The position numbers and the translations under genes were made by a program. The notes beneath the pieces were generated by a model. The model had not been told where the DNA came from, searched no databases, and saw nothing but the letters and a program-made list of their open reading frames with translations. 64,000 bases of DNA from the IMG/VR virus record IMGVR_UViG_3300050020_000061; one strand, given 5' to 3'. Position 1 is the first letter of the stretch. The number at the start of each line of letters is the position of its first letter. This document shows, piece after piece, positions 1,881 to 57,738 of the stretch. The DNA comes from a virus.

Positions 1881-3248
1881 CTAGCTCGACGACTTGGCTG
1901 GCGTCTTCTTCGGCGGTCCAGCCGCCGGTGCGGGCGGAGGCGTTGCCACCTCCTTGGCGGAGAGAACGTCGTCGACGGTCACTACGCCCAGAGGGGTGTT
2001 CGCCATGAGCTTGTTGTACGGGTTGTTCTCGTCGTTGGGGTCACCCATCGGCGGGCGGCCGTCGTCCATCCGCGCCTCGTTGATCGGCTTCCAAGGCATG
2101 CCTGCGAGCGCCAGCTTGTTGATGCTGGCCTTTGACATGGACTCCTTGATGTTGAGCCGAAGGAAGCGGAAGGCGAGGTTGTTCTCGGGGCCACCGAAGG
2201 ACTCGTCCCAGACGATCTCCCGTGTCATGAAGTCCTGCCCGAGCGCCAGCAGAGGACGGAGACCACGATCCTCGGTCATGTCCGCCTGTGTCTCTGCGTT
2301 CGCCCTGTTGATGTCCATGGTCAGGCCCAGATCCTGAGGAGAAAGGCCGTAGACGGCCGCCACCTTGCGGACCAGATAGACCAGCCACTCTTGGTACTGC
2401 ATGTCTCGGTTCGATCCACGGAATGGCACGAACTTCGCGCCCTTGGATCCGCCGATGAACGCCATGGCACCCTTGCCTGCCACCTCACTGAGCCAGTAGG
2501 ACTTGAAGCCCTCTACCTGCTCTGGGCGGGCTGTCTCACCGAGGTCGAGCATCCCGTCAGGTGCGGCGTTGGTGACCTGTCGCGTGTTGTACTGGGAGCC
2601 GTTTAGCTCCGCGTCGATGGTCAGCTTCAGGGTCTCGAGTGGCGAGAGTCCCATCACCGAGTAGGTGCGGGGGTTCGCCATGATGTAGACCATGTCGCGG
2701 TTCTTGAAGGGCACCTCGTAGGTGGGCGTCGGGCACCACCAGTAGCGGTTCTCGTCGGGATCGCCGTCCCAGATCGTGGAGACCTTGATCCTGCCCCCGT
2801 CGGTGCCGTGCAGGTAGGCGAGGGAGCCGTCGAGGGTGCGCTCCTTCTCGATCACGCCCGCGTCGAGGACGAGGATGTCCTCCATGATCGGCTCGATCCA
2901 CGAACGGAACGACTCGACCATCGGGTTGGGCTGGTTGAAGAGTGCCCGCAGCTCCTTCTGGAGCGGCTTGCTGTACTCCAGAGTGGAGTCGAAGGGGACG
3001 ATGTCCCACTCCGCGCTGGACACCTGCGTCTTGCGGATGTTGATCGCAGCCCGGATCCACTCCGAGTGCTCGGCCCAGTTGCGGAACAGGGCCGAGGACG
3101 ACTTCGATGCCCGACCCCTGTCCTGATAGGCCAGCGAGGCGCTGCCCTTCGGTTGGTTCTTGGGCGAGGTGCGATACCCGTAGAGCGACTTCCTCAGGGC
3201 AATGCGACCCTGAGGCGTCAGCAGACCCGGCGGAGCGGTCAAGGCCAT
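1881..3248 (-). CDS. portal protein
   Basis: 455 aa, immediately downstream of large terminase. Sequence character is typical of the HK97/SPP1-type Phage_portal family (FRNWAEHSEWIRAAINIRKTQVSSAEWDIVP, acidic C-terminal region). Confidence 0.8.
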   Translation of the reverse strand: MALTAPPGLLTPQGRIALRKSLYGYRTSPKNQPKGSASLAYQDRGRASKSSSALFRNWAEHSEWIRAAINIRKTQVSSAEWDIVPFDSTLEYSKPLQKELRALFNQPNPMVESFRSWIEPIMEDILVLDAGVIEKERTLDGSLAYLHGTDGGRIKVSTIWDGDPDENRYWWCPTPTYEVPFKNRDMVYIMANPRTYSVMGLSPLETLKLTIDAELNGSQYNTRQVTNAAPDGMLDLGETARPEQVEGFKSYWLSEVAGKGAMAFIGGSKGAKFVPFRGSNRDMQYQEWLVYLVRKVAAVYGLSPQDLGLTMDINRANAETQADMTEDRGLRPLLALGQDFMTREIVWDESFGGPENNLAFRFLRLNIKESMSKASINKLALAGMPWKPINEARMDDGRPPMGDPNDENNPYNKLMANTPLGVVTVDDVLSAKEVATPPPAPAAGPPKKTPAKSSS

Positions 3249-3457: not shown

Positions 3458-3702
3458 CACGCCCACCCCTTGTAGAGGATCGTCACGTCGTGGACGGGGC
3501 ACATGCCGAGGTAGTTGTCACCCCTGCTCGGGGGGCAGGTGCAGCGCACCGTGGCGTCCCCCGTGAGGGGAGGCTTGACGTACGGTGTCCAGCGCCACGG
3601 GACCTCCATGGGAGCCGTGCTGGTTCCCGTCGTGTTCACGGGGCAGCGATGCTCGTTCCCCTGCCACCACGTCCCGCAGTCGGGACACTTCAACACCGCC
3701 AT
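3457..3702 (-). CDS. Cys-rich small protein (zinc-ribbon-like)
   Basis: MAVLKCPDCGTWWQGNEHRCP...RCTCPP...CPVH. Coupled to the terminase stop. Confidence 0.55.
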   Translation of the reverse strand: MAVLKCPDCGTWWQGNEHRCPVNTTGTSTAPMEVPWRWTPYVKPPLTGDATVRCTCPPSRGDNYLGMCPVHDVTILYKGWA

Positions 3703-5186
3703 CAGGCTGCTCTCACTTTCAGACTGCCGAAGAAGAACTCCTGACCACCGAGATCCATCGAGTACCCGAGGGCGTCCACGAAATCGTCGTGGCCCTTGGG
3801 GAAGGAGAGCAGCTCGACCTCGAACGCCGAGCCCTTGAGGGAGGAGTGCAGGAAGACCTTGTGGGCCTCGAACTTCGCAGCCACCGCTCGTGCTCGGGTC
3901 GTCTTGTCGACGTCCGCCTTCTTGCCCTCGATGGGGATCTTGGGGTAGGTCTCCATGACCTCTTGGATCAGGGTCGACTGGAACTGGTTGCTCTCGACGA
4001 TCACGATGCTGATGTTCGGGTAGGCCATCCAGCCGTCGTGGATGAACTCCGTGTGGTGCGACTCGCGCTTGTCGCGGTAAGCCGAGAGCACGTAGAAGTC
4101 GCCGGTATCGAGGTTCTCGGCAGTGATTACTCGAGCGGTGAAGTCAGCTCTCTCCCGAACAGAGGAGGCGAGGTCAACTCCCATCCGAAGGAGCCATCTC
4201 CCCGGAGGAAGGACGTCGAAGTGGGTGAAGGGCCCGTGGAAGATGTTGCCCTCGAGGAGCCCGCTGATGTCGTTCTGGTAGGCGCAGGAGAAGAGCGGAG
4301 AGCCCATCTCGTCCTTCTCCTTGAGCAGTCGATCAACCGACCAGTACTCAGGCCAGTACGAGACGAGCCTCCCATCAGGACCCTCCGTGAGCGCCGACAC
4401 GACGTGACTCCGCCAGCCCATCCCGCCATCGGCGAGCGGCTTCATGAAGATCTCGTACAGGTCTTCCTCGCCCCACCGCGTTCCGATGGCGACCACCACC
4501 CCGTCAGGGGAGAGGCACGGCTTGAGGGTCTTCTTGAACCACGTCTCGACCTGTTCCCGCTGGTCGACGCTCTGGGTGTTCTCCTCGTCGAGGATGTCGT
4601 CCATCAGGATCAGGTCGAGGCGCTTGCTGATGATCGCGCCGCCAACGCCGACGGCGAACATCGTGACGTCCTTGGAGATATGCCAGCGCGAGCCAGCGAC
4701 GAGCCATTCCTTGTCCGTCCACTTCGACGGTGAGGGCCTGCTGTCAGGGAAAACCTCGCGGTGGAGGGGGTTCGCTTCGACCGTGTACTTGATGGCTCGG
4801 GAGAAGTCCTTGGCCTGCGTGTCGGTGTTGGAGACCATCGCGATACGGAGATCGGGGTACTTCCCCACCAGCCAACTGCACAGGATGGTGTTGTCCCACG
4901 TCGTCTTCGCCCCGCCTCGCGGAAGCAGGTAGACCTCGTTCTCGCGGCGGTACATCGCGTCGAGGGTCTCGGCGACCATCTTGCGGTGGTGGGCCGAGGG
5001 AACGTACCCGAAGACGAACTCGCCGTAGGCGAAAACCGCCTCTGGCCCGTCAGTTCTTGCGAGGGCTACCAATGCGTGGGAGCGGAGACTCCCCAGTGTC
5101 TCCGGGGACCAGCCCGCGAGTTGCTTCAACAATGCCGCGAAGAACGTCGGGTCCGAGGGATCCGACGGCTGTGAGGGTGACTCCAA
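3702..5186 (-). CDS. terminase large subunit
   Basis: Walker A-like LLPRGGAKTTW, Walker B-like LDLILMDDILDEE, and a C-terminal RNaseH-like nuclease region. TTG start at 5186 follows GAGGAG. It overlaps the small-subunit gene by 137 nt. Confidence 0.85.
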   Translation of the reverse strand: MESPSQPSDPSDPTFFAALLKQLAGWSPETLGSLRSHALVALARTDGPEAVFAYGEFVFGYVPSAHHRKMVAETLDAMYRRENEVYLLPRGGAKTTWDNTILCSWLVGKYPDLRIAMVSNTDTQAKDFSRAIKYTVEANPLHREVFPDSRPSPSKWTDKEWLVAGSRWHISKDVTMFAVGVGGAIISKRLDLILMDDILDEENTQSVDQREQVETWFKKTLKPCLSPDGVVVAIGTRWGEEDLYEIFMKPLADGGMGWRSHVVSALTEGPDGRLVSYWPEYWSVDRLLKEKDEMGSPLFSCAYQNDISGLLEGNIFHGPFTHFDVLPPGRWLLRMGVDLASSVRERADFTARVITAENLDTGDFYVLSAYRDKRESHHTEFIHDGWMAYPNISIVIVESNQFQSTLIQEVMETYPKIPIEGKKADVDKTTRARAVAAKFEAHKVFLHSSLKGSAFEVELLSFPKGHDDFVDALGYSMDLGGQEFFFGSLKVRAA

Positions 5187-6653: not shown

Positions 6654-6931
6654 CCCAGCGCCTCGTAGATCGCTTCGCGGACCTTGGCGCGACCGGGCCC
6701 GATGCGGTAGAAGGTCTCCACCTCCTCGCGGATCGTCCGGTCGAGAGCTTCGCGGACGTGACGTCCGATGATCAGCTTGACGTTCTCGGGCTGGCAGAAC
6801 TCCTTGACCGCCGCCTGAAGGTCTTCGTCCAGCTTCGCCTCGTACTCCGAGAGAGCCGCGAGGATGCTGAACTCCATCCGCTCGAGGGTGAGGCGGACGA
6901 TGGGGATGCTGGGGAGGTTGGGAGGGCTCAC
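6650..6931 (-). CDS. hypothetical protein (93 aa; alternative start ATG 6877)
   Basis: GTG 6931 is in a GTGA overlap with the upstream stop. The helical region MEFSILAALSEYEAKLDEDLQAAVKEF... looks coding. Confidence 0.5.
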   Translation of the reverse strand: MSPPNLPSIPIVRLTLERMEFSILAALSEYEAKLDEDLQAAVKEFCQPENVKLIIGRHVREALDRTIREEVETFYRIGPGRAKVREAIYEALG

Positions 6932-7200
6932 CGGATCCCCGAGCACCGGGCGCACATGGTCGGGCCCCTGAGGGCTGACCCGAGGCCGATGTAGAAGCAG
7001 ACCCTCCGCTGACCGCAGGCATCGCACTTCTGGCGAGGCACCCGGTAGAGGCTGATCGCCATAGTCATGGTCATGGGGTGGTCGGACGTGGCGAACGTCG
7101 TGTCCACGTCAGGAGAGAACATCGTCCCCTGATCTGGGTGGTGTGGCTTGGGGGTCTTCACCACGACCGGCGGTGGTTTCGTCCCGAACTCGGGGAACAA
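6928..7200 (-). CDS. small Cys-rich protein (zinc-ribbon-like)
   Basis: TTG 7200 after GAGGAGGA. C-terminal CDACGQRRVC...CARC. Confidence 0.45.
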   Translation of the reverse strand: MFPEFGTKPPPVVVKTPKPHHPDQGTMFSPDVDTTFATSDHPMTMTMAISLYRVPRQKCDACGQRRVCFYIGLGSALRGPTMCARCSGIR

Positions 7201-7317
7201 GGTCTGGATCCTCCTCTTGGATGACGTTCATGAGGATGAGATGAAACTCAAGGCTGTTGATGGCCTTCCCCGGTGGGATCCGCTCCATGGCGGTGCGGAC
7301 CCACCGGGTGAAGGGGT

Positions 7318-8167
7318 TTACCGCGTGCGGAAGCGGCGGGTCGCCCACAGGCCCATCCCGCTCAGGAAGAGCAGGACCATCACGACCGGCAGGACTGGGT
7401 TGGTGCTCGAGCCAGAGGCTGCGAGGGTCGAGGTAGCCGGGGGCGTACCAACGGGCGGCGTCTCGGGCGGCACGGTGACCAGCGGCGTCGGAGACGGGCT
7501 CGGAGAGACGCTGGGCACTGGCGACGGGCTGACGCTCGGAACGGGCGACGGGCTCGGAACGGGCGACGGGCTCGGGGACGGACTCGCACTGGGGCTGGGC
7601 AGGATGCAGCCGTTCGCCAAGGTGCAGGGGGGGCTCGATGGTGCCACTGGCCTGATCTGCGCCCTTGAAGCGCAGGCCGTACGTATAGGTGCCGGGAGCG
7701 AGAGGGGTGGTTCCATCGGTCAGGAGCATGTCTCCCGGCTCGAGGATGAACTGCCAGCCCTCGGTCACACCGGCAACCGTGATGGAGCCGGATCCGTCGA
7801 TCTTCGCGCAGTCAGTGGTCTGGAATGTCGGCAGAGTGGGCGGAGTCGGGGTCGAGCAGGGGATGGCGACGATCTCGGTGGTGATCTTGCTCCACTCGTC
7901 GTCGTTGCTGTTTCGCTGGCGCTGGTCCAACGTGGCAGACCCATCAACGGTGATCTTGTCGCCGTTCTCGTAATCGGTCCACGCACCGCCTTCGAGGCGG
8001 TACTGGCTGTGCTTGGCATCGGCGTGCAGGGTCACCGTGGCGACCGACGTGCCGTCGACGCACTGCTGCGAAACGTCAGGGTTCCACGCCAGCGCCGAGC
8101 CAGCAGTGAACCCGAGCATGAGGGCGACGAGCCCGAGACTCGCCAGAACGGAAAGGATGCGCTTCAC
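7318..8167 (-). CDS. secreted surface protein with C-terminal sorting-signal-like anchor; reading frame broken at a G7/C7 homopolymer (7627-7633)
   Basis: GTG 8167 after AGGAGGTCCAC. Signal peptide MKRILSVLASLGLVALMLGFTAGSALA. After ...GTIEPP the frame must shift by one base to continue as CTLANGCILPSPSASPSPSPSPVPSP...TSTLAASGSSTNPVLPVVMVLLFLSGMGLWATRRFRTR, with stop at 7318. The unshifted frame runs on as Arg/Pro-rich nonsense to 7109. Confidence 0.65.
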
Positions 8168-8176
8168 GTGGACCTC

Positions 8177-8449
8177 CTATGAATGATCGTGGAAGAGTGG
8201 ATCTGAACAGGGGATGTCCGTCTTGATGTCGCGCAGCTCCTTCTCGATCTGGCGAAACATGTCGGCGATGTCGAGGGACGGCTTTGGAGGCGGAAGGCCC
8301 GCGCTCTCGAGGACCGGCACGATCCCCGTCATTTCCGTGGGCTCCTGCCCGACTGGGTAGTAGTAGCCCCGGATGTCCTTGTATCGCTTGATTGCGACGG
8401 GCTCAGTCAGCTCCTCGAAGTTCGCCCGCTTGAACTCGGCGGAGGTCAT
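8177..8449 (-). CDS. hypothetical protein (90 aa)
   Basis: I trimmed the start to ATG 8449 (MTSAEFKRANFEEL...) after GAAGGAA. Confidence 0.55.
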   Translation of the reverse strand: MTSAEFKRANFEELTEPVAIKRYKDIRGYYYPVGQEPTEMTGIVPVLESAGLPPPKPSLDIADMFRQIEKELRDIKTDIPCSDPLFHDHS

Positions 8450-8454
8450 TTCCT

Positions 8455-8718
8455 TCACGGCAGATCCTTCGTTCTCTCGGAGTTGAGGCGGGCCTGTGCC
8501 TCGGTGTTTGCCTTCTGGAGGTTCGCCACCATCACCTTCGTTCGCTCGAGTGGCTTGACCCACGGGATCGTCTCCCCGACGGGAGTGGATGGCGCAGCGA
8601 TCCGCGCCACCCACTCTTCCTCCGTCGGGGCGGGGTCACCAGCTCCTCTCCAGTGACCCCACGGGGCGGCCTCGATCCCCCCAGAGACCGAGGACTCCCC
8701 AGAAAAAAGCTTGTTCAC
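8455..8718 (-). CDS. hypothetical protein (87 aa)
   Basis: GTG 8718 is in a GTGA overlap with the upstream stop. Confidence 0.5.
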   Translation of the reverse strand: MNKLFSGESSVSGGIEAAPWGHWRGAGDPAPTEEEWVARIAAPSTPVGETIPWVKPLERTKVMVANLQKANTEAQARLNSERTKDLP

Positions 8719-35007: not shown

Positions 35008-35045
35008 TCGAGACTCGCGTGGACGTCTTCTAACGGGACAGGATG

Positions 35046-35095
35046 GCGGTCTCCAAAACCGCCCGACGAGGGTTCGAGTCCCTCCGGCCGCGCCA
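35046..35095 (+). tRNA. tRNA-Trp(CCA)-like 3' portion (anticodon arm to CCA); I could not find a 5' acceptor strand or D-arm
   Basis: GCGGT-CTCCAAA-ACCGC anticodon arm, 5-nt variable loop, GAGGG-TTCGAGT-CCCTC T-arm, CGGCCGC-G-CCA. Upstream sequence has no GCGGCCG-type partner and no D-stem. Confidence 0.5.
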
Positions 35096-35361
35096 ACAGT
35101 GACGTCGAGGCCGTTCGAGGCCAATGATCCGGGGTAGGTGCCTAGCGCACAGGAACCATTGACCCGCTGGTGCATCAGCGGGCGGTGCGCCCGTGTGTAT
35201 AGCCGGAGCAAGGGGCACCAAGCGCGGCCGACGGGAGAGAGTCGCGCACAAAGCAGGGCTTCATTGAACGACTCAGCGGTGAGACGCCGTGAACATGCCG
35301 GGTGCGCTTGCGATGAGCAACCTCCCCGGCTCTGTGGCTGGTCCGCAGCCCTGCTCTTCAG

Positions 35362-35438
35362 GCCGAGGTGATGCAACTGGCAGACATCGGGTCCTCAAAC
35401 CTCCCGTCATGCGAGTTCGAGTCTCGCTCTCGGCACCA
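35362..35438 (+). tRNA. tRNA-like gene with a canonical acceptor, D- and T-arm but a weak anticodon stem; the loop reads CU-CAA-AC
   Basis: GCCGAGG/TCTCGGC acceptor (one G-U), T-arm GCGAG-TTCGAGT-CTCGC, A73, encoded CCA. The anticodon stem has only 3 Watson-Crick pairs plus U-U and C-C. There is no long variable arm, although CAA would be a Leu anticodon. Confidence 0.5.
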
Positions 35439-35440
35439 CC

Positions 35441-35515
35441 GCCAAGGAAGCTCAATGGACGAGCAACCGGCTTCTAACCGGCAGGCTGCGGGTTCGACCC
35501 CCGCCCTTGGCACCA
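35441..35515 (+). tRNA. tRNA-Arg(UCU)
   Basis: Full cloverleaf folded by hand: GCCAAGG/CCTTGGC acceptor, GCTC/GAGC D-stem, ACCGG-CTTCTAA-CCGGC anticodon arm, GCGGG-TTCGACC-CCCGC T-arm, A73, CCA. Confidence 0.8.
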
Positions 35516-46783: not shown

Positions 46784-48385
46784 TCAGACTGCGTTGGCGT
46801 CCAGATTGTGCCAGACGTGGTACTCGACGTAGACGCTCTTGGCTGCCTTCAAGAGCTGGAAGGTCCCGAGGTCTGGACTGGTCTCGAGGAACCCCGCTCC
46901 ACCCGCGCTCTGCGGGTCGGGCACGCTCGTCAGGCGAAGCCCCTGTGCCACCACCGTCAGGCTGTCGCGGACGTAGGCGTAGGTGAGCTGCCACTTGTTC
47001 CCCGACATCGGGGTGGCCCACTCCTTCACCAGCACCATCGGTGAGGCCACGATGTAGGGGTAGTCAGTTCCGTACTTCGAGCGGTCGATCACGTTGAAGT
47101 TGGGCTGGACGAGGCCCCTCGCCGGGGGACGCTTCAGGGCGAGGAGCAGGCCCCACGGATCCTGCGTGTCGAAGCTGCAGGTGACCCGGTACTCCACCGT
47201 CGTGGGAGTGGGGAAGCTCATGTCGATGGCGCGGACTGGCAGGTTCACCCCGCTCTTCGTCTGCGGACCGAACACCGGGTCGTAGGTGGTGAAGGTGTGG
47301 ACCCCCGAGAAGATGCTCACGATCTGGCCCGGATAGAGACCGTGCTTGTAGATCGTGAACTCGGCCCGCATCGCAGGCACGCCCTCCTGATTGAGGATCT
47401 TGTTCGACCTCGCCCTGATCATCCCCGCCAGCCAGTCGGAGCCCATGGTCTCGGCCCACTGGAAGCGGCCGTACTGGTTGACCGAGGCCGCCAGTGAGTT
47501 GTGGACGTAGAGCAGGAACTCCTGCGTCGACGTTGGAGTCGGGTCGAGAGAGCCGGTGAAGATGATGACGTCGTTCTTGAGGCGGCTGATGTCGGTGGTG
47601 ATCGTGAGGGACTTGCAGGCCACGCTGCCCTCGTTGTCTCCAACGGAGAACGGGGCCCAGTCGGTGTCCTGCTCCTTGTAGACGATGTAGCCCTCGGGGT
47701 CGATGTACCAGATCGAGGACCCCGGCATGCTCCTCAGGATGTTGGCCGAGACGTCGGTGAAGAATGCCCTCAGGGAGGTCCCCGCAGACGGTGGGGTCCA
47801 CGTGGCACCCGTGTCGCCCGTGTTGATGACGGCGACCTCGTCGATCCGGCTGTCAGCGGGGTTGAGCTGGCCCCACTTGATCAGCGGGCTGACCTTGTCG
47901 AGGTCGAAGCTGGTCAGCATCTTGGTGATGTACGCCTTGTCGGTGGTGCCCTTGGGCACCGCCACCACGTAGCCCGAGATCTGGCCGTTGGTGGTCACCT
48001 TCTGGCGCTTGTACCCACCCAGCCCGGTCTTCGGGTTGCTGCCATCGGGATACCACGTGGGCTTGAAGCGGTTGTACAGGTACAGCTTGTCGAACAGGAT
48101 GTTCAGATCGACACCGTGCAGGACCATGCGCGGCTCAGGTGCGTCGGGGAAGACGTAGCCCTGCTCGAGCACGAACAGGTAGCCCCACCACATCCTCACG
48201 CCGTTGATGTAGAGGGCGATCAGATCCCTCCCCGGAGAGAAGGTGTAGAGAGCCCTCAGGGTGACGGTGCAGGACCCCGGCTGGGCTGCAGCCACGGCCT
48301 GAAAGTTGGTTTGGCTGAAGATGACGTCCGCCGTGACATCGGTCGTCCCGACCGTGATCGTGACGACCGCCTCCTCGACGTCCAT
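46784..48385 (-). CDS. minor tail protein (533 aa; distal-tail/hub position directly after the tape measure)
   Basis: I trimmed the start to ATG 48385 (MDVEEAVVTITVGTTD...), overlapping the tape-measure stop by 1 nt. Paralogous to the C-terminus of the 1810-aa protein. Confidence 0.75.
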   Translation of the reverse strand: MDVEEAVVTITVGTTDVTADVIFSQTNFQAVAAAQPGSCTVTLRALYTFSPGRDLIALYINGVRMWWGYLFVLEQGYVFPDAPEPRMVLHGVDLNILFDKLYLYNRFKPTWYPDGSNPKTGLGGYKRQKVTTNGQISGYVVAVPKGTTDKAYITKMLTSFDLDKVSPLIKWGQLNPADSRIDEVAVINTGDTGATWTPPSAGTSLRAFFTDVSANILRSMPGSSIWYIDPEGYIVYKEQDTDWAPFSVGDNEGSVACKSLTITTDISRLKNDVIIFTGSLDPTPTSTQEFLLYVHNSLAASVNQYGRFQWAETMGSDWLAGMIRARSNKILNQEGVPAMRAEFTIYKHGLYPGQIVSIFSGVHTFTTYDPVFGPQTKSGVNLPVRAIDMSFPTPTTVEYRVTCSFDTQDPWGLLLALKRPPARGLVQPNFNVIDRSKYGTDYPYIVASPMVLVKEWATPMSGNKWQLTYAYVRDSLTVVAQGLRLTSVPDPQSAGGAGFLETSPDLGTFQLLKAAKSVYVEYHVWHNLDANAV

Positions 48386-51300
48386 CAGACGGCTGGACCA
48401 CGCAGGCCGAACATCTGGCCCTTGCGAGCGAGGGTCTTCTCTACCTCGGCCGCCACCTGACGCGCCAGATCCGTGATGTCCTGATCGTTGCGAACGGAGG
48501 TCCCTGTGATGTTCACCGTCAGGTTCATCGGGCCCACGCCACCGCCACTGGGAGCGAGAGTGGCGGCTCGCGGGTTGCGGAGGATCGCGACCGCCTCGCT
48601 GCCAGCCTCGCCGATCATGGCGTGGGTCGGCATCGAGGTGATCCCCACTGCACCGGAGGCGATCCCGAAGATGCGCTTGTAGTAGGGGTCCACCCCACCG
48701 GCCTTGGCGAGGCCACCGGGGCCGAGGTGCCACGGGGAGCGAGCGATGGCGTTGAGCTGGGCGTTCGCGCTCTGGCCCACCGTGCCCATGATCCCCGAGT
48801 AGTACGAGCTGGACTTGATCAGGTTCGCGGCTGCGGCAGCGCCTGCCTCAGGGGTCGCGAAGCCAGCAGGCTGGCCCGGACCCTTCATGATCCCGAGGTT
48901 ATTCAGGGGCCCGACCTCGGCCTGCGCCCACTTCCGTGAGGCTTCGACCGTCAGGCCGGTGTTCTTGGCGAGGGCCGCAGCGAACCGATCCAGCCGCTCG
49001 TTCTTGGGGAGGTTGGCCGTGGTCGAGGGAGAGAACGAGGGGGCGGCGACCTTGGGGTTGGCGGCCTTGGGGTTGTCCCCCGGAACCGTCGGGGTGGCGG
49101 CGGCCTGAAGATCCGAGATGGCCTTGGCGAGGGAAGCCACGGACGCGTCAGCGAGGACGACCTTGGGGAAGCTGGTCTGGATGGCCCGCATCCAAGCGTT
49201 GATGTTCGTGTCCGTCAGGGCCACGTCGGTGGGGCCGTTGTTCCCCGTCAGCGGACGAGCGTTGCGGATGATCGCGACGGTCTCGGGGCCAGCCTCGCCC
49301 ACGATCATCTCGGTGGCGTGACCGATGCTGCCGAGGAACCCGGCCGCGTTCTTCTTGCCGCCGCCGCCGCCGCCCGAGGAGACAGGGGCGTAGCCGGGGA
49401 CCACCACGACCGGAGTCCCAGTGGATCCGAACCCGGAGGTCGGTGCCGTCAGGACGGTATTGCCGCTCTTGTCGGTCGTCTTGGTGTAGCCGAGGGCCTC
49501 GTAGACGGCCTTGACCCCGTCCTTCACGGAGCCAGCGAACTGCCCAACACCCTGCGCGGCAGCGGACAGGGCGTCTGACCAGTTGCCCGTGGCCGTCCCG
49601 AGGATGGCGTTCATGCCCGCCACCTTGGTCGCCAAGATCGCCTGCTGCTTGGCGATGTTCTCCTGCGCCGTGATCGCGTAGCCCTCGGCGTTGCGGGCCA
49701 ACTGCATGTTCGTGATGGCCTTGGAGGCGTCGAGAGCGGCACGGTTGGCGTTCTCGTTCCAGATCTTCTGGCCGAGATCGAACTGCTGGGTCGCGATGTT
49801 GAGCTGCTGCTGCTGGATCGAGGCCTTCTGGATCGCCTCGACCTGAGCGAAGTACCGCTCCTCTCCCGTCTGTCCGGGGGCGGAGAACTGGGCCTGAGCC
49901 AGAGCCGTGGTGATGCTGCGCTGCTGGAGCTGCAGGCTCAGGCTCTGGTTCATGATGTCCAACTTGTGGGACATTCCCTGCCAGATGCCGAGCTGGGTGG
50001 CGGTCCCGCTCACGCCGGAGGTGTTCTTGATCCCGGCCCCAGAGATGGCACCGAGGGCGTCCCCCACGGCGCGGCTGGCGAGGCGGATCTGGTTGTCCCA
50101 GTTGAACTGGCTCGCCTCCTGATTGAGCTTGCCCATCTTCGTGGTGAGATCGGCGATCTTCGCCGACGACACGTTCGCCTGAATGGCGAGCACCGCGAAG
50201 TCAGGCAGGGAGGCCGGGTTGAACTGCCCGACCTTCGTGAGCGCCTCGAACAGGCCCTTGCCGGAGATGGCAGCCAACTGGGAGTTGGCGGCGGCCGTGG
50301 ACGCCAGCGACTGCTGGGCCATGCCCGCAGCGGGGCCGGTCAAGCCGGTCGCGGTCGCGCTCGGCCGACCTGTCTCAGCTCCCTTGAAGAACCCGAGGCC
50401 GGGGGCCACCAGAGGCTGCTGGAGCAGGTTCTGGGTCATCTGGAAGGGGATCTCGAGGGCCATGGTGAGCTGCTGCTGGGCCTGACGAGACTGCTGCTGG
50501 GCCTGAAGCTGGCGGATGTTCAACTGGGCCCAGACGCCGGGGTCGACGAGGTTCTTCCCGGCTGCGGTCTGCTCGATGGCGTCCTGATGCTGCTTGATCT
50601 GATCGGCTGCCGTCTTCGAGCTGTCGACGATCTGGCCGTTCACCTTCATGACGATGTTCGACTGCATCGCCAGATTGGCGCTGTACGTGTCGCCAGCCTT
50701 GGTGGCGATGGCGACCGCCTTATCGACCTCGTCCCACGACTTGGCGACTTCCCACGTCACCTTCACGGACTTCTTGCCGGAGACCTCCATGTTCTTCCCG
50801 GCCCGATCAGCGGCAGACCCGAGATCGTTCAGCGCGTTGGTCCGGGCATTCACGTCGATCTGACCCATGCCGATGTTGGCGTCGAACTTCGGGAGCTGGG
50901 CAGCCTTCTGCTCGGGGGTCATCTGGTAGTTGGAGCTGTAGTTGCCTGCCCCGATGGATCCGATCAGCGCCCCGGCGATAGCGCCGATGGCAGTCCCCGG
51001 ACCCGGCAGGATCGAGCCGATGGCCGCCCCTGCCAGAGCGCCACCCACGCCACCAATCGCGGTGCTCGCGCCTACGTCGCCGGGTGTCGCCATCCCGGCC
51101 GCCTTGGCCTTGTAGTCGATGTACGCCTGCTCGTTGGGGCTGGTGACGTAGTTGGCCCCGGTAGCGATCTGGTTGAGGGTCCCGGTGACGCCATTCCCGC
51201 CGGTCTCAGCCTTGCTGTAGCCGCTGAACTGACCGGCAACGGTCTCCATGAAGCCCTTGCCGCCGCCCATCTGCTCGGCGAACAGAGCGGACCCGAGAAC

Positions 51301-54300
51301 GCCTCCGTAGCCCCCGTAGAGGCCCTGAGGCGGCCCTGTCTGGGACCCCATCGAGGCGCGGAAGATGTCGGCCGTCGCCTGCTGGGCCTTCTGCCCCGCC
51401 TTGGCGGTGACGGACGCGTCCAGAGACGTGGAGACGAAGGCGAGCATGTCCTTCGACAGCCCAGCCGTCACGGCAGCCTGAGCCATCGTCGCCTGCATGT
51501 TCCCGTGGGACTCGTAGGTGGCCTGAGCGAGGGCCGAGGTGGCAGCCGTGGACGTCGACCTGAAGCCGGTCATCTGGTCGACGAACTTGCCAGCCGCCTC
51601 CGACCCGGCGTCGATGCCCTTGCTGGCGAGGGACATCGCCATGCCGTAGACCGTGGTGGCACCGATGACCACGCCGAGGTTCCGAATGATGTTGCCCGTG
51701 CTGGGCTGCATCTTGACCGTGGTGGCTCGGAGATCGTCGAACTTCGAGATCACCTTCCCCAGCTCACCGGGGGCCTTCTTGTACTCCTCGATGGACCTCT
51801 TGATCGAGTCCCGCTCCTTGCCACGGGCACCCATCAGGTCGGCCTGAAGGTTGACGTACTTGTTCAGCTCTGGGGCGGTCTCAGGAGTGACGAGGCCAGA
51901 CAACTGGCGCTGCTGGTGCCGCGCCTCGGTCTGAAGCTGGAGCATCTTGCCCCGGCCACCGAGCCCCATGGAGGCGAGCTGGGCGATGCCGCCTCGCGGG
52001 GTGCGCCCCGACATCACCTGCTGCCACGCGCTCGACTCACCCATGATGTCGGCGAGGGTGCCCTTGAACTCCTTGTAGGCATCAGCCTGCTCGGGGGACA
52101 CCGCTGCGCGACGAGCAGCGCCCATGCGTGCCGAGGCTCCCTGCATCCCACGAGGTGCGCGAGGAGCGCGACCACCACCCATGGCGGCCTGCACGTCAGC
52201 GCCCTGCTGCTCGATCCACTCCTGATACGCGCCGGGGTTGTTGAAGCCACCGGCCGGAACGGTCGGTCCAGCGGTCGGCGTGGCCTGAGGGCGATGACGA
52301 GGCGAGACCCTCTCGGTGGGCGGACGCGAAGCCTCGCGGCTCCGCATCAGGGCGTCGTGCTCGCGCTGCCAGACGGGATCACCGAACAGGGCAGGACCGC
52401 TCGTGAGCTGCTCGTCCGTGAACTTCCGGCCGCCTCTGCCGGGGCCAGCCGTGGCGACACTGGGCTGCTTGGCCGCCCTCTGCACGGGGAGGATCAAGCC
52501 AGTGAAAGCCGCCTGCAGCTTCTCGGCGGCGAGCGCCATCTCGTTGATGGGGGCCGCCATCTTGCCTGCGGCCTCGGCGGCCGGAGTCAGGATCGGGCCC
52601 GTGGACACTCCGGCTCCGGGCTTGGTGAGGCCCAGCGATGCCAGAGTGGCGGTCGACGGGGCGAAGGAGGGGCCCGGAGGAGGCGTGCGCGGGATGGCGA
52701 ACATGTTCTGGGGGGTGCGGAGACCACCGTGCAGGGTCTCGAACTCCCTCGCAGCACGCTCCCTGATCTTCTTGTAGGGGTCGACCTTGCTCTGCTGGAA
52801 GGCGGCCTCGAGCGTCTCCCCTCCGTCCTGACGATGGGGCACGAGGTGCATCAGGCGGTTGGGGACGATGATCCCGTCCTCGGGGGGCGCGAACAGGCTG
52901 TTCGGCTTCTGGCCGATCACCTGCATGCCGCCCTGCGCCTTCGGGATCTGGTCCATGACCTTCTTGGGGATCAGGGGCGTCAGGGGCTTGGGGACGAACA
53001 GCTCCCTGCCAATCTCGCCGACGATGTACAGGCCCTTGCCGCCGGGAGACAGTTCCTTCGCGGGAAGGTTGTTCTCGAGCGCACGTCGCACCCATGGCGA
53101 CATGACGGGACCACCGCCCTCGCGACCAGTGAACTTCGCGAAGATCTCGGCTGCCCGCATGCGCTGCGGATCCACCCGCTCGAGCGAGCGGTTGGCCGAG
53201 GCAATCCGGGTGAGCCCGGGGCTCTCGATCAGTCCGCCGATGGCGCGAACTGCCGCCTCCGCGTCGGTGCCGGTGGCACGGAGCCGGAGCTGGTCACCCT
53301 GCCGCGCACCCAGCGCCAGCAGGTGGTGCATGTACTTCGCGTCGACCACGCCGCGCTGCGGCATGCCACGGGTCAGGTTCTCGACGCTGATGAAGGCGTC
53401 GAAATCGGCCGCCATCCTCGCGAGGTGGGCCGAGGGACGCATGTGGAGGCCGAGCTGGTCCGCGACCGTGAAGAGATGGCTGACCGGCCCTCCGCCCTCG
53501 CGGTAGATCTTCGGGGGGAGCTTCGACGTGCGGGCGCGCTTCAACCACTCGGGCTCGAAGGGCTCGACCGGCTTCGGCATCTCGACCTTCGGAGGCTCGG
53601 GCAGGCCGAGGATGCGGCGCTGCAGTGGGCCCAGAACGGGGCCCCCCTCGGCGTGCCCTCCCTTGGTCCAGTTGGTGCCGTAGACGCCGCGCATGTAGTT
53701 CCCGGCCAAGGCCCGAGTCCAACGTCGGGGGTCATTGAGACTCCCCATGGTCTCGTTCCAGCGCCGGTCGCCGACCAGCGTGCCACCCGTGAAGGGAAGA
53801 GGCGCTCCGACGAAGTCCTCGTTCAGGCGGGGAGGTCCGACACGCTCGATACGCTTGGGATTGAAGACACCAGCGCGGTACTGGCGCAGGCGCTCGCGAC
53901 GACGCTCCCAGTCGCGGTTCGGCACGTACCCGCCGCGAGCCTTGTGCTGGTCCGCCTGCTGCTGCCACGCCATGATCGCCATGAAGGGATCGTTGGCCCA
54001 GTCGGCAGCGGTCTGGAACATGGACGAGACGAACCCGGGCTTGGCGATCTGGTTGAGGGGCGGAGTCATGCCCCCCAGAGCAGGGCCACCAGCGGCCCGA
54101 TGGAAGGGGATCTCGAGCCCCGGATGACGCGGGATCGAGATGCCGCGCTGGGTCCTGAGCCAGTCCGTGCCGAGGCCAGCGCCCTTGTGGGCGGCGTTGA
54201 CGTTCGTGTCGAGGCCAGACCAGAGGATGGCCTGAAACTCGCTCAGGTTGTGGAGGTCCCACCGCTTCGCGTACTCGGGGTAGAGATCCTCCATCGCCCC

Positions 54301-57300
54301 GATGCCGAGCTTGCGGATCATGTCGCTCCCGGCGGGAGCCTTCCAGAAGGTCTTGCTGTTCGGGCCGGTGTGGCGACGAGCAGCGGTGATGATCTGGGAC
54401 ATGCGGGAGTCGTAGGTGATGGCGTTCGGATCGAGGCCAGTGATGTTCTGGAACATCGCGCCGCGCTTGGGCCCAGTCGGAGAGCCCTCGCGGCCCATCA
54501 AGAACGCCCATGCGTCCTCGATGGGGCCAAGGCCCCGACCGGCGGAGAAGGACGTCTCGCCGAACCCGGGCACGTTGGAGCTGCCGGAGGTCTGGGGGAC
54601 TCCGGTCTCGAGCAGGTGACGGACGATGGCGCGGTTGGAGCGCCACTCCTGCCCCGACGATGCGGCAGCGAACGCGCCGAGCCCCGACAGGGCATCCATC
54701 CCGAGGGACTGCCAGCTCGTCTTCCCGCCGATGATCGGGTCCATGAGGTCGCCCACGGCCTGCGCGTGAGCGATGGTCCACCAGTCCCGGGCCTCGTTGA
54801 CCACCTCGGGCTTGATCGTCTCGGCGTGGGCACGGATGTTCGCATGGAGATCGCGGGCGTTCTCAGGCAGCCGCATCAGGCCACGGAGGGGGTTCTTGGG
54901 AGTGGAGGATGGCACCACCCAGCCGCCGTCAGCTCGGAGGCCGATGCTGCTGGGGGCGAGGAGAGCGCCGCGAGGGGCGTCGACCGGCGAGCCCGAGAGG
55001 CCCACCAGCTTGTAGTGGCGCTTGCTCTGGGGACCGCTGCTGATCGCGTAGGCGGGCACGGTCTCGAGACCCAGTCGACGAGCCACGGCGAGGCGATGAT
55101 TGCCATCGTCGACCATGGCCGCGTGGTGCGACGGGTCGTAACGCAGGGCGATGGGCTTCTGGATGCCACGCGCCGCGATGTCGCCGGTCAGCTCACCGAG
55201 ATCGGTGGCACCCTGTCCGGTGCGTGGGTACGTCTCCCGGTCCTCGCGGAGCAGGGGCAGCAGAGTCGACAGGCGGACGTTCTCGACCATTCCCCCCGAC
55301 TCGCGCTTGCGGCCAGCCATGATGAGCTGTTGGATCCGCTCGGCGTTGGCGCGCAGCTTGTGGCCGCTGGTCGGGATCTCGTCGAACCGCTTCAGGTCGA
55401 AGAACGCGAGCTGCGCCTTGGCGCGAGCGACCATGTCTGCTTCGCGCTTGCGGCCAAGGACAGCGGCGGGGTCGATGTGGATCTGGCCCTCGTGGAGCCA
55501 CGTGCCGACGTACGGCGGGAAGCTGCCAGCCGCGAGCTGGGACTGCTTCTGGGCGTTGAACTGCTTCAGGAAGTCGCGGAAGTTGTTGGGGTCCTCGACG
55601 AGGTGCGACGTCCCGGTCGCGATGCCGACGGCGTAGCCCTTGGGCGGCTGCGGCCCACCGGAGAGCGGGAAGGTGCCGCCCTCGTTCTCCATCGTGGCCC
55701 GGTAGGCCATGGCCCCGAACCCGGCCTTCTTGATGTTCCGCAGGATCCGCCACGACTCGATCTCGCCAGCAGCGTTGTGGAGCTGCACGGCATAGCCGCG
55801 TCCGACAGGAGCCACGCCCACATACCCGCCCGGGGCGGAGTGGTCCTGATAGTGGTTGATCGTGTCCTGAATGGCGTGGTAGAGCCCCTCGGGACGCGGG
55901 GCGTAGTGGCCCCCGCCACCGGGCAGTCGGCTGATCTCGACCGCGCCACCGCGAGCGCGGAAGCGCACGCCGGGGCGGTCGGGAATGAACTGGTTCTCAC
56001 CGAATGCTGGGGCAGGCTGGGGAACGTGAGCGCGAGGCTGAGTCGAAGGGTTCCATTCCGAGGTGGCAGTCCATGGACCGTTCTCCCCATAGGAGACACG
56101 TCGCATCTGCTCCTGCGGGTCGTTGCGGCGCTGCGCTCGGGTCCGGGCCCTCGTCGGGAGAGGCTGGCCGAACGCAGGAGGCTCACGCCGTGGGGCTCGG
56201 GCGGCTGCAGCCATTTCGATGGGTGACAGCGACGGGCCGGGGAGCGGGGGGACATTGCCCAGCCCACCCCACGGCCTGCCGCCCGCCAGAGTCTCTGGCC
56301 GATGCGCGAACGAGATGTGAGCATCGAGACCGGACTGGGCGAGGAATGGACCGGCCGCCGTGCCGCACGTGGGGCACAGGAGGTTCTGGCTCTGACGGAT
56401 GGCCTGCGCTCGGGCTCGCTGGACAGGATCGTATGTCGTGGGGCCTTGGCCGGATGCTGCCTGCCTGCGCTGGTACTCCAGCGTGTAACGGTCGTACTCT
56501 TCCTCCCGCCGTGCCGTGGACAGGATGCGGGCATCGACGGGCCGGTCCCCGAAGATCTTCCCGAACGGACGATCCTTCTGCGCCCAGAACGCCTTGCCGC
56601 GTGTGAGCTGGACGCTCGAGGGGGCGATGGGCCTGCCGGTGAACCGCTCCGTCTTGACGTAGGCGGCTGTCGCCAGACCCTTCCTGCGGTGCTCGACACC
56701 CGTGATCGAGTAATCAGGGTGGAAGCTCCCTGCGGGAGTGGGGACGCCCCACTGCTCAGGATCTGACCTGTAGCTGAAGGGGAAGGTCGCCGCGACCTTG
56801 TCGCCCTTCATGACGATAGCGACGAGCCCCGCTGCATAGTCCTTGGACAGGATCACGGGCTTCTTGACGGGCTTGAACCCGGGCCCGGGCTTGTCCAGCC
56901 GCCCACCGAAGTTGCGGATGTCGAAGTCGTTGCTCTGGGGGCTGTAGAACTCGATGTGGTAGCCCTTGGGGAGACCACCCTTGTGGGCTGGCCCGCCATG
57001 GGCACGAGCGGAGATGTTCTCTCCACCCTGCAGCTTGGCCGCAAGAAGCTCCAACTGGCGGATCTCGGACTCGCTGTAGCCGCCACGGTTGGCGGCCACA
57101 CGGCGCTTGCCACGCTGCTGGATCTGGTACTCGAGGGCAGCCAGCTCCGCTTCCGCCTTCCGCAGGCGAGCCTGTTCCCTGTGATAGGCGTTGATGTCAG
57201 GCAGAACCATGCCCGATGAACGCGGGCGAATGATCTCAGGCCCGCGCTCCCCCACCAGAACGTCACGTCCCTGCTGAACAGCGCCACCATGGGCCCGGGT

Positions 57301-57738
57301 GGGCAGGTTGTTGCGAACGGCCGTCTCAACGGCTCTGGCAGCCCCTGAGCGCGTTCCAATGGCCGGGGTAGAGACCGCCGAGACCACGCTCTTCGCTTCG
57401 GCCGCGATGGCCTTCGACATCTGCGGAGTGATGGTGATCGGGATGGAGCCGAGGCCCTTGATGATCTGGGCGCGGAGAGAGGCGAGGCTCTCCGCGTTGA
57501 CCGTCAGGGGGACGTTGACAGCCTGCATCTGGGCAGGGGTGCCCCCGGCGACGGCTCGCCCGCCACCGGCTACCTGTGCCCCACCCAGCGCCTTCATCCC
57601 GCCCGCGCCGGAGACGGCCCTCTCGGCAGCGGCCGTGAAGGCATTCATCGACGCGGTCGCCTTATCGGCTCCGCCCGCAAACCCAGAGGCGTCCAGCGTG
57701 AGCCTGACGCCGATGGTCTCGACTTCCGTGTTGCCCAT
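48385..57738 (-). CDS. tape measure protein, 3117 aa, with an N-terminal about 1500-aa array of globular modules
   Basis: It sits between the G/G-T chaperones and the minor tail genes. The C-terminal half is Ala/Gly/Gln-rich and helical, with a glycine-zipper segment and MIVGEAGPETVAIIRN / AMIGEAGSEAVAILRN motifs. The N-terminal half carries the GNAT-like, Zn-finger, ParB-like and HPr-like modules listed separately. No stop or frame break across 9354 nt. Confidence 0.85.
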   Translation of the reverse strand: MGNTEVETIGVRLTLDASGFAGGADKATASMNAFTAAAERAVSGAGGMKALGGAQVAGGGRAVAGGTPAQMQAVNVPLTVNAESLASLRAQIIKGLGSIPITITPQMSKAIAAEAKSVVSAVSTPAIGTRSGAARAVETAVRNNLPTRAHGGAVQQGRDVLVGERGPEIIRPRSSGMVLPDINAYHREQARLRKAEAELAALEYQIQQRGKRRVAANRGGYSESEIRQLELLAAKLQGGENISARAHGGPAHKGGLPKGYHIEFYSPQSNDFDIRNFGGRLDKPGPGFKPVKKPVILSKDYAAGLVAIVMKGDKVAATFPFSYRSDPEQWGVPTPAGSFHPDYSITGVEHRRKGLATAAYVKTERFTGRPIAPSSVQLTRGKAFWAQKDRPFGKIFGDRPVDARILSTARREEEYDRYTLEYQRRQAASGQGPTTYDPVQRARAQAIRQSQNLLCPTCGTAAGPFLAQSGLDAHISFAHRPETLAGGRPWGGLGNVPPLPGPSLSPIEMAAAARAPRREPPAFGQPLPTRARTRAQRRNDPQEQMRRVSYGENGPWTATSEWNPSTQPRAHVPQPAPAFGENQFIPDRPGVRFRARGGAVEISRLPGGGGHYAPRPEGLYHAIQDTINHYQDHSAPGGYVGVAPVGRGYAVQLHNAAGEIESWRILRNIKKAGFGAMAYRATMENEGGTFPLSGGPQPPKGYAVGIATGTSHLVEDPNNFRDFLKQFNAQKQSQLAAGSFPPYVGTWLHEGQIHIDPAAVLGRKREADMVARAKAQLAFFDLKRFDEIPTSGHKLRANAERIQQLIMAGRKRESGGMVENVRLSTLLPLLREDRETYPRTGQGATDLGELTGDIAARGIQKPIALRYDPSHHAAMVDDGNHRLAVARRLGLETVPAYAISSGPQSKRHYKLVGLSGSPVDAPRGALLAPSSIGLRADGGWVVPSSTPKNPLRGLMRLPENARDLHANIRAHAETIKPEVVNEARDWWTIAHAQAVGDLMDPIIGGKTSWQSLGMDALSGLGAFAAASSGQEWRSNRAIVRHLLETGVPQTSGSSNVPGFGETSFSAGRGLGPIEDAWAFLMGREGSPTGPKRGAMFQNITGLDPNAITYDSRMSQIITAARRHTGPNSKTFWKAPAGSDMIRKLGIGAMEDLYPEYAKRWDLHNLSEFQAILWSGLDTNVNAAHKGAGLGTDWLRTQRGISIPRHPGLEIPFHRAAGGPALGGMTPPLNQIAKPGFVSSMFQTAADWANDPFMAIMAWQQQADQHKARGGYVPNRDWERRRERLRQYRAGVFNPKRIERVGPPRLNEDFVGAPLPFTGGTLVGDRRWNETMGSLNDPRRWTRALAGNYMRGVYGTNWTKGGHAEGGPVLGPLQRRILGLPEPPKVEMPKPVEPFEPEWLKRARTSKLPPKIYREGGGPVSHLFTVADQLGLHMRPSAHLARMAADFDAFISVENLTRGMPQRGVVDAKYMHHLLALGARQGDQLRLRATGTDAEAAVRAIGGLIESPGLTRIASANRSLERVDPQRMRAAEIFAKFTGREGGGPVMSPWVRRALENNLPAKELSPGGKGLYIVGEIGRELFVPKPLTPLIPKKVMDQIPKAQGGMQVIGQKPNSLFAPPEDGIIVPNRLMHLVPHRQDGGETLEAAFQQSKVDPYKKIRERAAREFETLHGGLRTPQNMFAIPRTPPPGPSFAPSTATLASLGLTKPGAGVSTGPILTPAAEAAGKMAAPINEMALAAEKLQAAFTGLILPVQRAAKQPSVATAGPGRGGRKFTDEQLTSGPALFGDPVWQREHDALMRSREASRPPTERVSPRHRPQATPTAGPTVPAGGFNNPGAYQEWIEQQGADVQAAMGGGRAPRAPRGMQGASARMGAARRAAVSPEQADAYKEFKGTLADIMGESSAWQQVMSGRTPRGGIAQLASMGLGGRGKMLQLQTEARHQQRQLSGLVTPETAPELNKYVNLQADLMGARGKERDSIKRSIEEYKKAPGELGKVISKFDDLRATTVKMQPSTGNIIRNLGVVIGATTVYGMAMSLASKGIDAGSEAAGKFVDQMTGFRSTSTAATSALAQATYESHGNMQATMAQAAVTAGLSKDMLAFVSTSLDASVTAKAGQKAQQATADIFRASMGSQTGPPQGLYGGYGGVLGSALFAEQMGGGKGFMETVAGQFSGYSKAETGGNGVTGTLNQIATGANYVTSPNEQAYIDYKAKAAGMATPGDVGASTAIGGVGGALAGAAIGSILPGPGTAIGAIAGALIGSIGAGNYSSNYQMTPEQKAAQLPKFDANIGMGQIDVNARTNALNDLGSAADRAGKNMEVSGKKSVKVTWEVAKSWDEVDKAVAIATKAGDTYSANLAMQSNIVMKVNGQIVDSSKTAADQIKQHQDAIEQTAAGKNLVDPGVWAQLNIRQLQAQQQSRQAQQQLTMALEIPFQMTQNLLQQPLVAPGLGFFKGAETGRPSATATGLTGPAAGMAQQSLASTAAANSQLAAISGKGLFEALTKVGQFNPASLPDFAVLAIQANVSSAKIADLTTKMGKLNQEASQFNWDNQIRLASRAVGDALGAISGAGIKNTSGVSGTATQLGIWQGMSHKLDIMNQSLSLQLQQRSITTALAQAQFSAPGQTGEERYFAQVEAIQKASIQQQQLNIATQQFDLGQKIWNENANRAALDASKAITNMQLARNAEGYAITAQENIAKQQAILATKVAGMNAILGTATGNWSDALSAAAQGVGQFAGSVKDGVKAVYEALGYTKTTDKSGNTVLTAPTSGFGSTGTPVVVVPGYAPVSSGGGGGGKKNAAGFLGSIGHATEMIVGEAGPETVAIIRNARPLTGNNGPTDVALTDTNINAWMRAIQTSFPKVVLADASVASLAKAISDLQAAATPTVPGDNPKAANPKVAAPSFSPSTTANLPKNERLDRFAAALAKNTGLTVEASRKWAQAEVGPLNNLGIMKGPGQPAGFATPEAGAAAAANLIKSSSYYSGIMGTVGQSANAQLNAIARSPWHLGPGGLAKAGGVDPYYKRIFGIASGAVGITSMPTHAMIGEAGSEAVAILRNPRAATLAPSGGGVGPMNLTVNITGTSVRNDQDITDLARQVAAEVEKTLARKGQMFGLRGPAV
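53218..53483 (-). other. HPr (PTS phosphocarrier)-like domain inside the tape-measure ORF
   Basis: HLFTVADQLGLHMRPSAHLARMAADFDAFISVENLTRGMPQRGVVDAKYMHHLLALGARQGDQLRLRATGTDAEAAVRAIGGLIE. This aligns by eye along its whole length with E. coli and B. subtilis HPr (GLHxRPA with His15, vdAKS, LG-x3-G, G-x-DE). The Ser46 position is Tyr. Confidence 0.75.
55048..55288 (-). other. ParB/Srx-like nuclease-fold domain inside the tape-measure ORF
   Basis: VENVRLSTLLPLL...GIQKPIALRYDPSHHAAMVDDGNHRLAVARRLGLETVPAYAI. The DGxHRxxAxxxxGxxxVP core is present. Confidence 0.55.
56302..56380 (-). other. C2H2-like zinc finger inside the tape-measure ORF
   Basis: LLCPTCGTAAGPFLAQSGLDAHISFAH. Confidence 0.45.
56551..56964 (-). 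other. GNAT acetyltransferase-like domain inside the tape-measure ORF
   Basis: GYHIEFYSPQSNDF...GLVAIVMKGDKVAATF...ITGVEHRRKGLATAAYVKTERF. The last segment fits GNAT motif A (V-x2-h-RRKG-h-A). Confidence 0.45.

Follow-up and report, generated by a model that had tools for sequence, protein, structure and literature searches.

A shared homopolymer frame break in a putative surface-protein gene, probably in decay, of an uncultured high-GC phage

The DNA analysed here is a stretch of 64,000 nucleotides from the IMG/VR virus record IMGVR_UViG_3300050020_000061, referred to below as the window. It contains genes for a terminase (3702-5186), a portal protein (1881-3248), an ERF recombinase and an AEP primase, and further encodes a DnaB-like AAA_25 protein, a PD-(D/E)XK nuclease, three tRNAs and giant ORFs. 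The terminase and portal genes support the earlier assignment of the locus to a phage. The portal protein was only ~23% identical to that of any cultured phage, no nucleotide-level relatedness of the window to deposited phages was detected, and a scan of the large ORFs revealed no integrase. The tRNA cluster at 35019-35515 comprises Trp-CCA, Leu-CAA and Arg-TCT, the second of which reads UUG, a rare codon in this phage (18/453 Leu codons), and the third AGA. A 3117-aa ORF (48385-57738, minus strand) embeds a PTS HPr-like domain at ~53224-53475 (PF00381, E = 3e-18), the only Pfam domain found in that ORF; the domain retains GLHMRP, the active-site motif with His-15, and solved HPr structures match it (3le1, E = 1.5e-7). 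An HPr module within a giant phage protein is unusual.

The subject of this study is a disrupted gene at 7318-8167 on the minus strand, flanked by phage genes. No sigma-70-type promoter was found at this gene, and its features are listed below in the direction of transcription.

8173-8177, minus strand: Shine-Dalgarno sequence GGAGG, 5 nt 5' of the GTG, overlapping the TAG stop of the upstream gene; the same in contigs L001-L004 (see below)
8167, minus strand: start codon GTG, opening the signal-peptide ORF
7634-8167, minus strand: frame-1 segment, aa 1-178 (ORF list, AlphaFold model, homologues P0155, P0004 and P0002)
8087-8167, minus strand: predicted signal peptide MKRILSVLASLGLVALMLGFTAGSALA, followed by W (WNPD...), part of the frame-1 segment
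~7856-8083, minus strand: predicted beta-sandwich domain 1, part of the frame-1 segment, with a PT linker after it
~7634-7828, minus strand: most of predicted beta-sandwich domain 2, part of the frame-1 segment
7652-7654, minus strand: codon 172, CAG (Gln) in the window and TAG in four other contigs
7627-7633, minus strand: C7 homopolymer (G7 on the plus strand) and frame break, read from the sequence and present in five assemblies
7318-7626, minus strand: frame-2 segment, aa 181-282 of the repaired protein (ORF list, alignment, AlphaFold model)
7606-7626, minus strand: invariant domain-2 Cys and CTLANGC loop, within the frame-2 segment
~7444-7599, minus strand: Ser/Pro linker, (S/V)P, within the frame-2 segment
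7426-7443, minus strand: putative family sorting motif PPATST, aa 242-247, assigned by homology
7411-7425, minus strand: LAASG, five residues after PPATST, within the frame-2 segment
7342-7395, minus strand: predicted transmembrane helix VLPVVMVLLFLSGMGLWA, within the frame-2 segment
7321-7341, minus strand: basic tail TRRFRTR, within the frame-2 segment
7318-7320, minus strand: TAA stop of frame 2, read from the sequence
7264-7314, minus strand: strong terminator-like hairpin lacking a U tract, 4 nt 3' of the frame-2 stop
7109-7626, minus strand: out-of-frame continuation of frame 1, 174 codons, Arg/Pro-rich, crossing the hairpin and overlapping the next gene (6928-7200)

The first-pass annotation had described two frames that meet exactly at the G7 run, and reading of the minus strand together with the ORF table found all of its coordinates to be correct, this junction included. 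Frame 1 reads up to the tract as ...GTIEPP, and frame 2 encodes, in order, CTLANGCILPSP, the (S/V)P linker, PPATSTLAASGSSTNP, the hydrophobic helix and the basic tail before the TAA. Removal of one C from the tract yields a single ORF of 282 aa with the junction sequence GTIEPPCTLANGC, just as had been predicted. The unshifted frame, with the junction sequence GTIEPPLHLGER, runs without an early stop to position 7109 and totals 352 aa; its description as Arg/Pro-rich nonsense holds, and the 7109-7626 continuation is not coding in its own right. At 7370-7460 the third-position GC was 0.80-0.90 in frame 2 versus 0.53-0.63 in frame 1, the preference moving to frame 2 past the tract, and the hairpin behind the frame-2 stop is exceptionally stable (-40.2 kcal/mol, z = -4.85; 0 of 200 shuffles folded equally well). 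The third-position GC, this post-stop hairpin and the transmembrane helix together identify frame 2 as the true downstream frame.

Relatives were sought in 5.8 billion proteins, and intact ones were found. HMMER, run exhaustively against 1.84 billion representatives, gave 101 relatives, of which 33 reached E <= 1e-10. The closest full-length relative, P0155 (242 aa), is 63% identical over the two N-terminal domains and carries in a single frame a signal peptide, domain 1, a PT linker, domain 2 (ending ...FTIVAC), a second PT linker, VPATDT, a G/S/T spacer, a hydrophobic helix and KRR. The same architecture, all in one frame, was seen in P0002, P0003 and P0008, and the counterpart of the interrupted EPP-CTLANGC of the window is read in one frame as PPCTVANNC or PPCTVANGC in P0003 and P0008. 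An alignment of seven domain-2 copies contains two invariant Cys residues, the second of which matches the Cys directly 3' of the tract in frame 2. Since this last invariant Cys lies just beyond the tract, the alignment shows that the ancestral reading frame was continuous across it. The proposal that one gene has been split by a homopolymer is borne out by these single-frame homologues, as is its signal peptide, ~150-aa N-terminal region (corresponding to the mature domains) and Ser/Pro linker. At the junction the homologues have no homopolymer, their codons being CCG CCG TGT in P0003 and GTC GCC TGT in P0155.

The family is small and uncharacterised, with a strikingly conserved signal peptide, MKR[IL]L..A.LGLVALMLG. 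Neither the 282-aa nor the 352-aa product occurs exactly in ~15 billion proteins, and apart from a 171-aa form described below, the 5.8-billion-protein search gave no relative above 55% identity. There was no nucleotide or protein match to the gene in the phage collection; a scan of IMG/VR matched only the low-complexity linker, further scans were empty, scanned JGI metagenome contigs gave nothing, and a search of GTDB genomes with a narrower domain-2 alignment likewise gave nothing.

With a 9-sequence alignment as input, AlphaFold modelled the repaired protein (mean pLDDT 63.5) with a signal-peptide helix (residues 2-19), an all-beta domain 1 with strands at 31-99 predicted confidently (block-mean pLDDT 78-92, residues 31-100), an all-beta domain 2 with strands at 114-177 predicted with moderate confidence, a disordered stalk and a C-terminal helix (258-275). 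Foldseek related the model to tandem Ig/FN3-like arrays, including Ig domains of phage tail tips and the SiiE adhesin, with low TM-scores. Neither of the two domains matched a Pfam, NCBIfam or PHROG model. Among the relatives, P0006 has a SpaA-type domain (PF17802) above the Pfam cut-off, and PF24514, PF20674 and PF19403 fell just under their cut-offs in P0005 and P0008.

As for the C-terminus, the first-pass annotation had proposed a tripartite sorting signal in which LAASG served as the motif. The tripartite layout of motif, hydrophobic helix and basic tail stands, and the choice of motif does not. LAASG aligns with a non-conserved G/S/T spacer (IGASTG and SGG, for example), and it has Ser at position 4, which departs from the LAxTG motif of class E sortases. 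It is instead PPATST (aa 242-247) that aligns with the position of LPQTG, LPPTDT or VPATDT in the homologues. Most of 36 relatives with a hydrophobic and basic C-terminus share the motif [LVP]P[PQAL]T[DSNG]T, exemplified by LPPTDT, PPPTST and VPATDT, with LPQTG(T) in three (P0005, P0006 and P0010). At roughly 9-18 residues in the tails listed, the G/S/T-rich spacer that separates motif and helix is of unusual length. Although VLPVVMVLLFLSGMGLWA and TRRFRTR at the extreme C-terminus, together with the N-terminal signal peptide, reproduce the layout described by the LPXTG model TIGR01167, the window protein has PPATST and LAASG in place of an LPXTG pentapeptide and scored 12.4 bits, below the cut-off of 15.9; relatives, at 12.8-14.3 bits, were also below it. 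The other curated C-terminal sorting models tried on the protein did not fit, and no C-terminal sorting model in NCBIfam or Pfam covers the family signal. The repaired protein would thus resemble an LPXTG-type surface protein in its working, and it is a candidate sortase substrate only.

These features can be set against Gram-positive LPXTG proteins with Ig-like or SpaA domains (TIGR01167; PF17802, PF24514). The predicted signal peptide, beta-sandwiches, Pro-rich stalk, motif, transmembrane helix and basic tail are held in common, and three relatives have a true LPQTG and some have SpaA-type domains. Unlike those proteins, the family uses the motif [LVP]PxT[DSNG]T with a longer spacer before the helix, and the two domains of the window protein match no model. 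A comparable case on a phage is SasX, a wall-anchored surface protein encoded on a PhiSPbeta-like prophage of S. aureus ST239 (PMC10232760). As with SasX, the cargo of the phage would be a secreted surface protein of host type that has an N-terminal signal peptide and a C-terminal anchor signal; it differs from SasX in that its motif is not LPXTG, the two share no sequence similarity, the gene is broken, and no integrase accompanies it among the large ORFs scanned.

The break itself lies in a tract that is exceptional for this genome. Frame 0 reads GAG CCC CCC CTG across it, and the ancestral reading would be GAG CCC CCC TGC. G/C runs of at least 7 are ~28-fold depleted in the window: dinucleotide-preserving shuffles gave an expectation of 27.9 +/- 7.2, and the sole example observed in 64 kb is the one at the frame break. 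Only 15 other G6/C6 runs occur. Long G/C runs are strongly avoided in this phage genome. In the intact homologue P0003 the Pro-rich stalk contains C7 and C8 runs that stay in frame (contig L006, ~1421-1427 and 1443-1450; gene positions 780 and 802), so that poly-C arises from CCC Pro codons within the family and forms latent frameshift hotspots.

An exact-protein look-up led to four public contigs from four other samples (L001-L004), drawn from Logan SRR11568929 (75.9 kb), two WOOD18-1 samples and ERZ27254254. L001, L003 and L004 were 99.91-100% identical to the window across the aligned blocks, and L002 was 99.76% identical over its main block, the remainder forming a second block at 99.93%. 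All five assemblies, the window included, have C7. The contigs bear private SNPs, and L003 a 95-bp deletion, so they represent distinct genotypes. The deletion in L003 (window 8453-8547) fuses the two small genes that directly precede the surface-protein gene into one 112-aa ORF, and this region seems to be changing.

The lesion is thus real and shared among genomes. The suggestion that a mistake in homopolymer sequencing or in assembly added the seventh C and hides an intact gene draws on the error-proneness of homopolymers on some platforms and on the perfect fit of the repaired ORF to the family architecture. It has become scarcely credible, however, given that the same C7 recurs in five independent assemblies from different samples and pipelines (Logan, ENA MetaG and the source of the window), linked to distinct SNPs and indels, and that an independent nonsense lesion adjoins it.

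This second lesion lies nine codons upstream of the tract. At codon 172, TAG replaces CAG in all four contigs, whose genes are called as 171 aa, and the JGI record P0032, a protein record only, matches that 171-aa product. The window and L001 differ by just one change besides the CAG/TAG exchange over 18,167 nt. Recoding of TAG to Gln was considered and rejected: TAG is an ordinary stop that terminates 10 of the 45 called genes, the portal gene included, and the tRNAs (Trp, Leu and Arg) include no suppressor. The tree of the five sequences is star-like and by itself does not polarise the exchange; CAG was taken as ancestral on the strength of the Gln that occupies the corresponding position in each of the two domain-2 repeats of P0002. 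The TAG product would lack the last strand of domain 2 (strand 170-177 of the model) together with the invariant Cys, and thus at most domain 1 could be functional. Moreover, since the TAG lies upstream of the tract, no frameshift can restore the anchor in the TAG genomes.

These data bear directly on whether C7 acts as a functional switch, through which the CAG allele would yield the anchored full-length protein either by slipped-strand phase variation or by +1 slippage of tRNA-Pro. The tract is indeed a homopolymer within an ORF, and the downstream frame is still intact. A precedent for phase variation exists in high-GC Actinobacteria, where the 7C tract of glpK in Mycobacterium tuberculosis varies in length (bioRxiv 10.1101/717272; PMC10334774). 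Like the glpK tract, the tract studied here is a 7-C run in an ORF, in which +1/-1 changes shift the frame; unlike it, the tract shows no length polymorphism in five genomes, and a second, irreversible lesion lies upstream in most of them (L001-L004), so that the ORF is not otherwise intact. In four contigs and one protein record, the TAG would block any rescued product.

The alternative route, ribosomal slippage, has its precedent in tRNA-Pro on CCC-C, a classic slippery sequence that gives +1 frameshifting (PMC7577736, PMC8324841). The shift needed here is likewise +1, and a P-site CCC followed by C permits perfect re-pairing, so that CCC CCC C qualifies as a slippery P site. What distinguishes the site from programmed frameshifting is that its A-site codon is neither slow nor a stop, that it lacks a stimulatory element and that it is not conserved. 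CUG, which follows in frame 0, is a common codon (39% of Leu codons, 177 of 453), a 121-nt fold across the site gave z = +1.07 with no RNA structure 3' of it, CCC-C occurs in frame 27 times in 44 phage genes and is not avoided, and the tract is absent at this site in the homologues. Slippage at this CCC-C would be background-level at best. Phase variation and programmed frameshifting, both offered in the first-pass annotation, accordingly lost ground, and a functional switch is decidedly unlikely. A narrower version, confined to the CAG genotype, treats C7 as a low-frequency switch by which a minority of infected cells display an anchored protein with an undescribed [LVP]PxT[DS]T signal. We give this a very slim chance; if it were true, the TAG genotypes would be natural knock-outs.

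A different possibility is that the gene is alive in truncated form, its secreted N-terminal product remaining in use as 171 aa with TAG, or as 178 aa plus a nonsense tail with CAG. Under this scheme, TAG may have been selected because it rids the product of a harmful 174-codon tail, translated across the terminator and on into the gene that follows. In all five sequences the lesions spare the ribosome-binding site, start codon, signal peptide and domain 1, the model predicts the fold of domain 1 with confidence, and the TAG is one of just two changes that separate the window from L001. Against this, loss of the last strand and of the Cys partner would leave domain 2 crippled, and the sequence variation is too low for a test of purifying selection. 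We consider a living truncated gene unlikely on balance.

The reading that best accommodates the observations, which we put at a probability of about 0.74, is a fixed C6 to C7 slippage in an accessory gene, with decay of that gene now under way. The pseudogene that the first-pass annotation had held in reserve has in this way become the best-supported interpretation, in that the frame is reproducibly broken relative to intact homologues and an additional lesion is present. The ancestral gene would have been accessory cargo of an uncultured high-GC phage. Its product would have been exported by the Sec pathway and built from two beta-sandwich domains of Ig/FN3-like type, a Ser/Pro stalk and a C-terminal anchor resembling LPXTG signals (motif, transmembrane helix and basic tail). 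Replication slippage would then have inserted one C into the Pro-Pro codons CCC CCC to give C7, and this insertion would have become fixed in the phage species, separating the N-terminal part from the stalk and anchor and from the last, invariant Cys of domain 2. Selection on the gene as a whole would have been lost, and most circulating genotypes would later have gained the nonsense mutation nine codons upstream. We infer the direction from C6 to C7; the original role in surface anchoring and the subsequent loss of function are both probable from the sequence comparisons.

Several observations were counted against decay. The frame-2 segment remains stop-free and recognisably homologous over 102 codons, implying that the lesion is recent or that the segment is perhaps still used at a low level. 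The ribosome-binding site and start codon are intact, and CCC_CCC_C by its nature favours +1 slippage. Production of the N-terminal fragment may also continue, and the fragment may be of use.

The relatives of the gene lie in unrelated neighbourhoods, mostly of short unannotated genes, several of them in phage-like gene regions, and no homologue is syntenic with the window phage; these unrelated neighbourhoods suggest a mobile cargo gene. Two relatives, P0159 and P0164 (contigs L094, 596-793, and L095, 1419-1613), have a divergent DUF7218 gene immediately upstream, and the L095 neighbourhood, with an HTH_17/MerR-like gene and many small ORFs, is prophage-like in look. The ClpA-like ATPase adjoining P0002 was uninformative as to a host, its matches being only 30-42% identical and spread across many phyla. 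The sole cellular lead was a domain-2 fragment located on a 350-kb contig (L092; 71% GC over the 16-kb locus read) whose TopA is 86-89% identical to proteins of Candidatus Limnocylindrales (Chloroflexota). This contig hints at the home lineage of the family and is a lead of that kind, not an identification of the host of the window phage. The fragment on it (L092, 7980-8267) runs into an Arg-rich out-of-frame tail, and is either another broken copy or the result of a long-read indel error.

For annotation, the consequence is that 7318-8167 should be described as one disrupted gene, neither as a 352-aa ORF nor as two genes. The locus itself carries little weight beyond showing a CCC CCC Pro-Pro pair as a slippage hotspot in a GC-rich phage, and it would serve as an example of a cargo gene early in decay, with two lesions and a 3' half that is otherwise intact. 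The more useful by-product is a protein family with an LPXTG-like, non-canonical C-terminal signal that lies outside the curated models.
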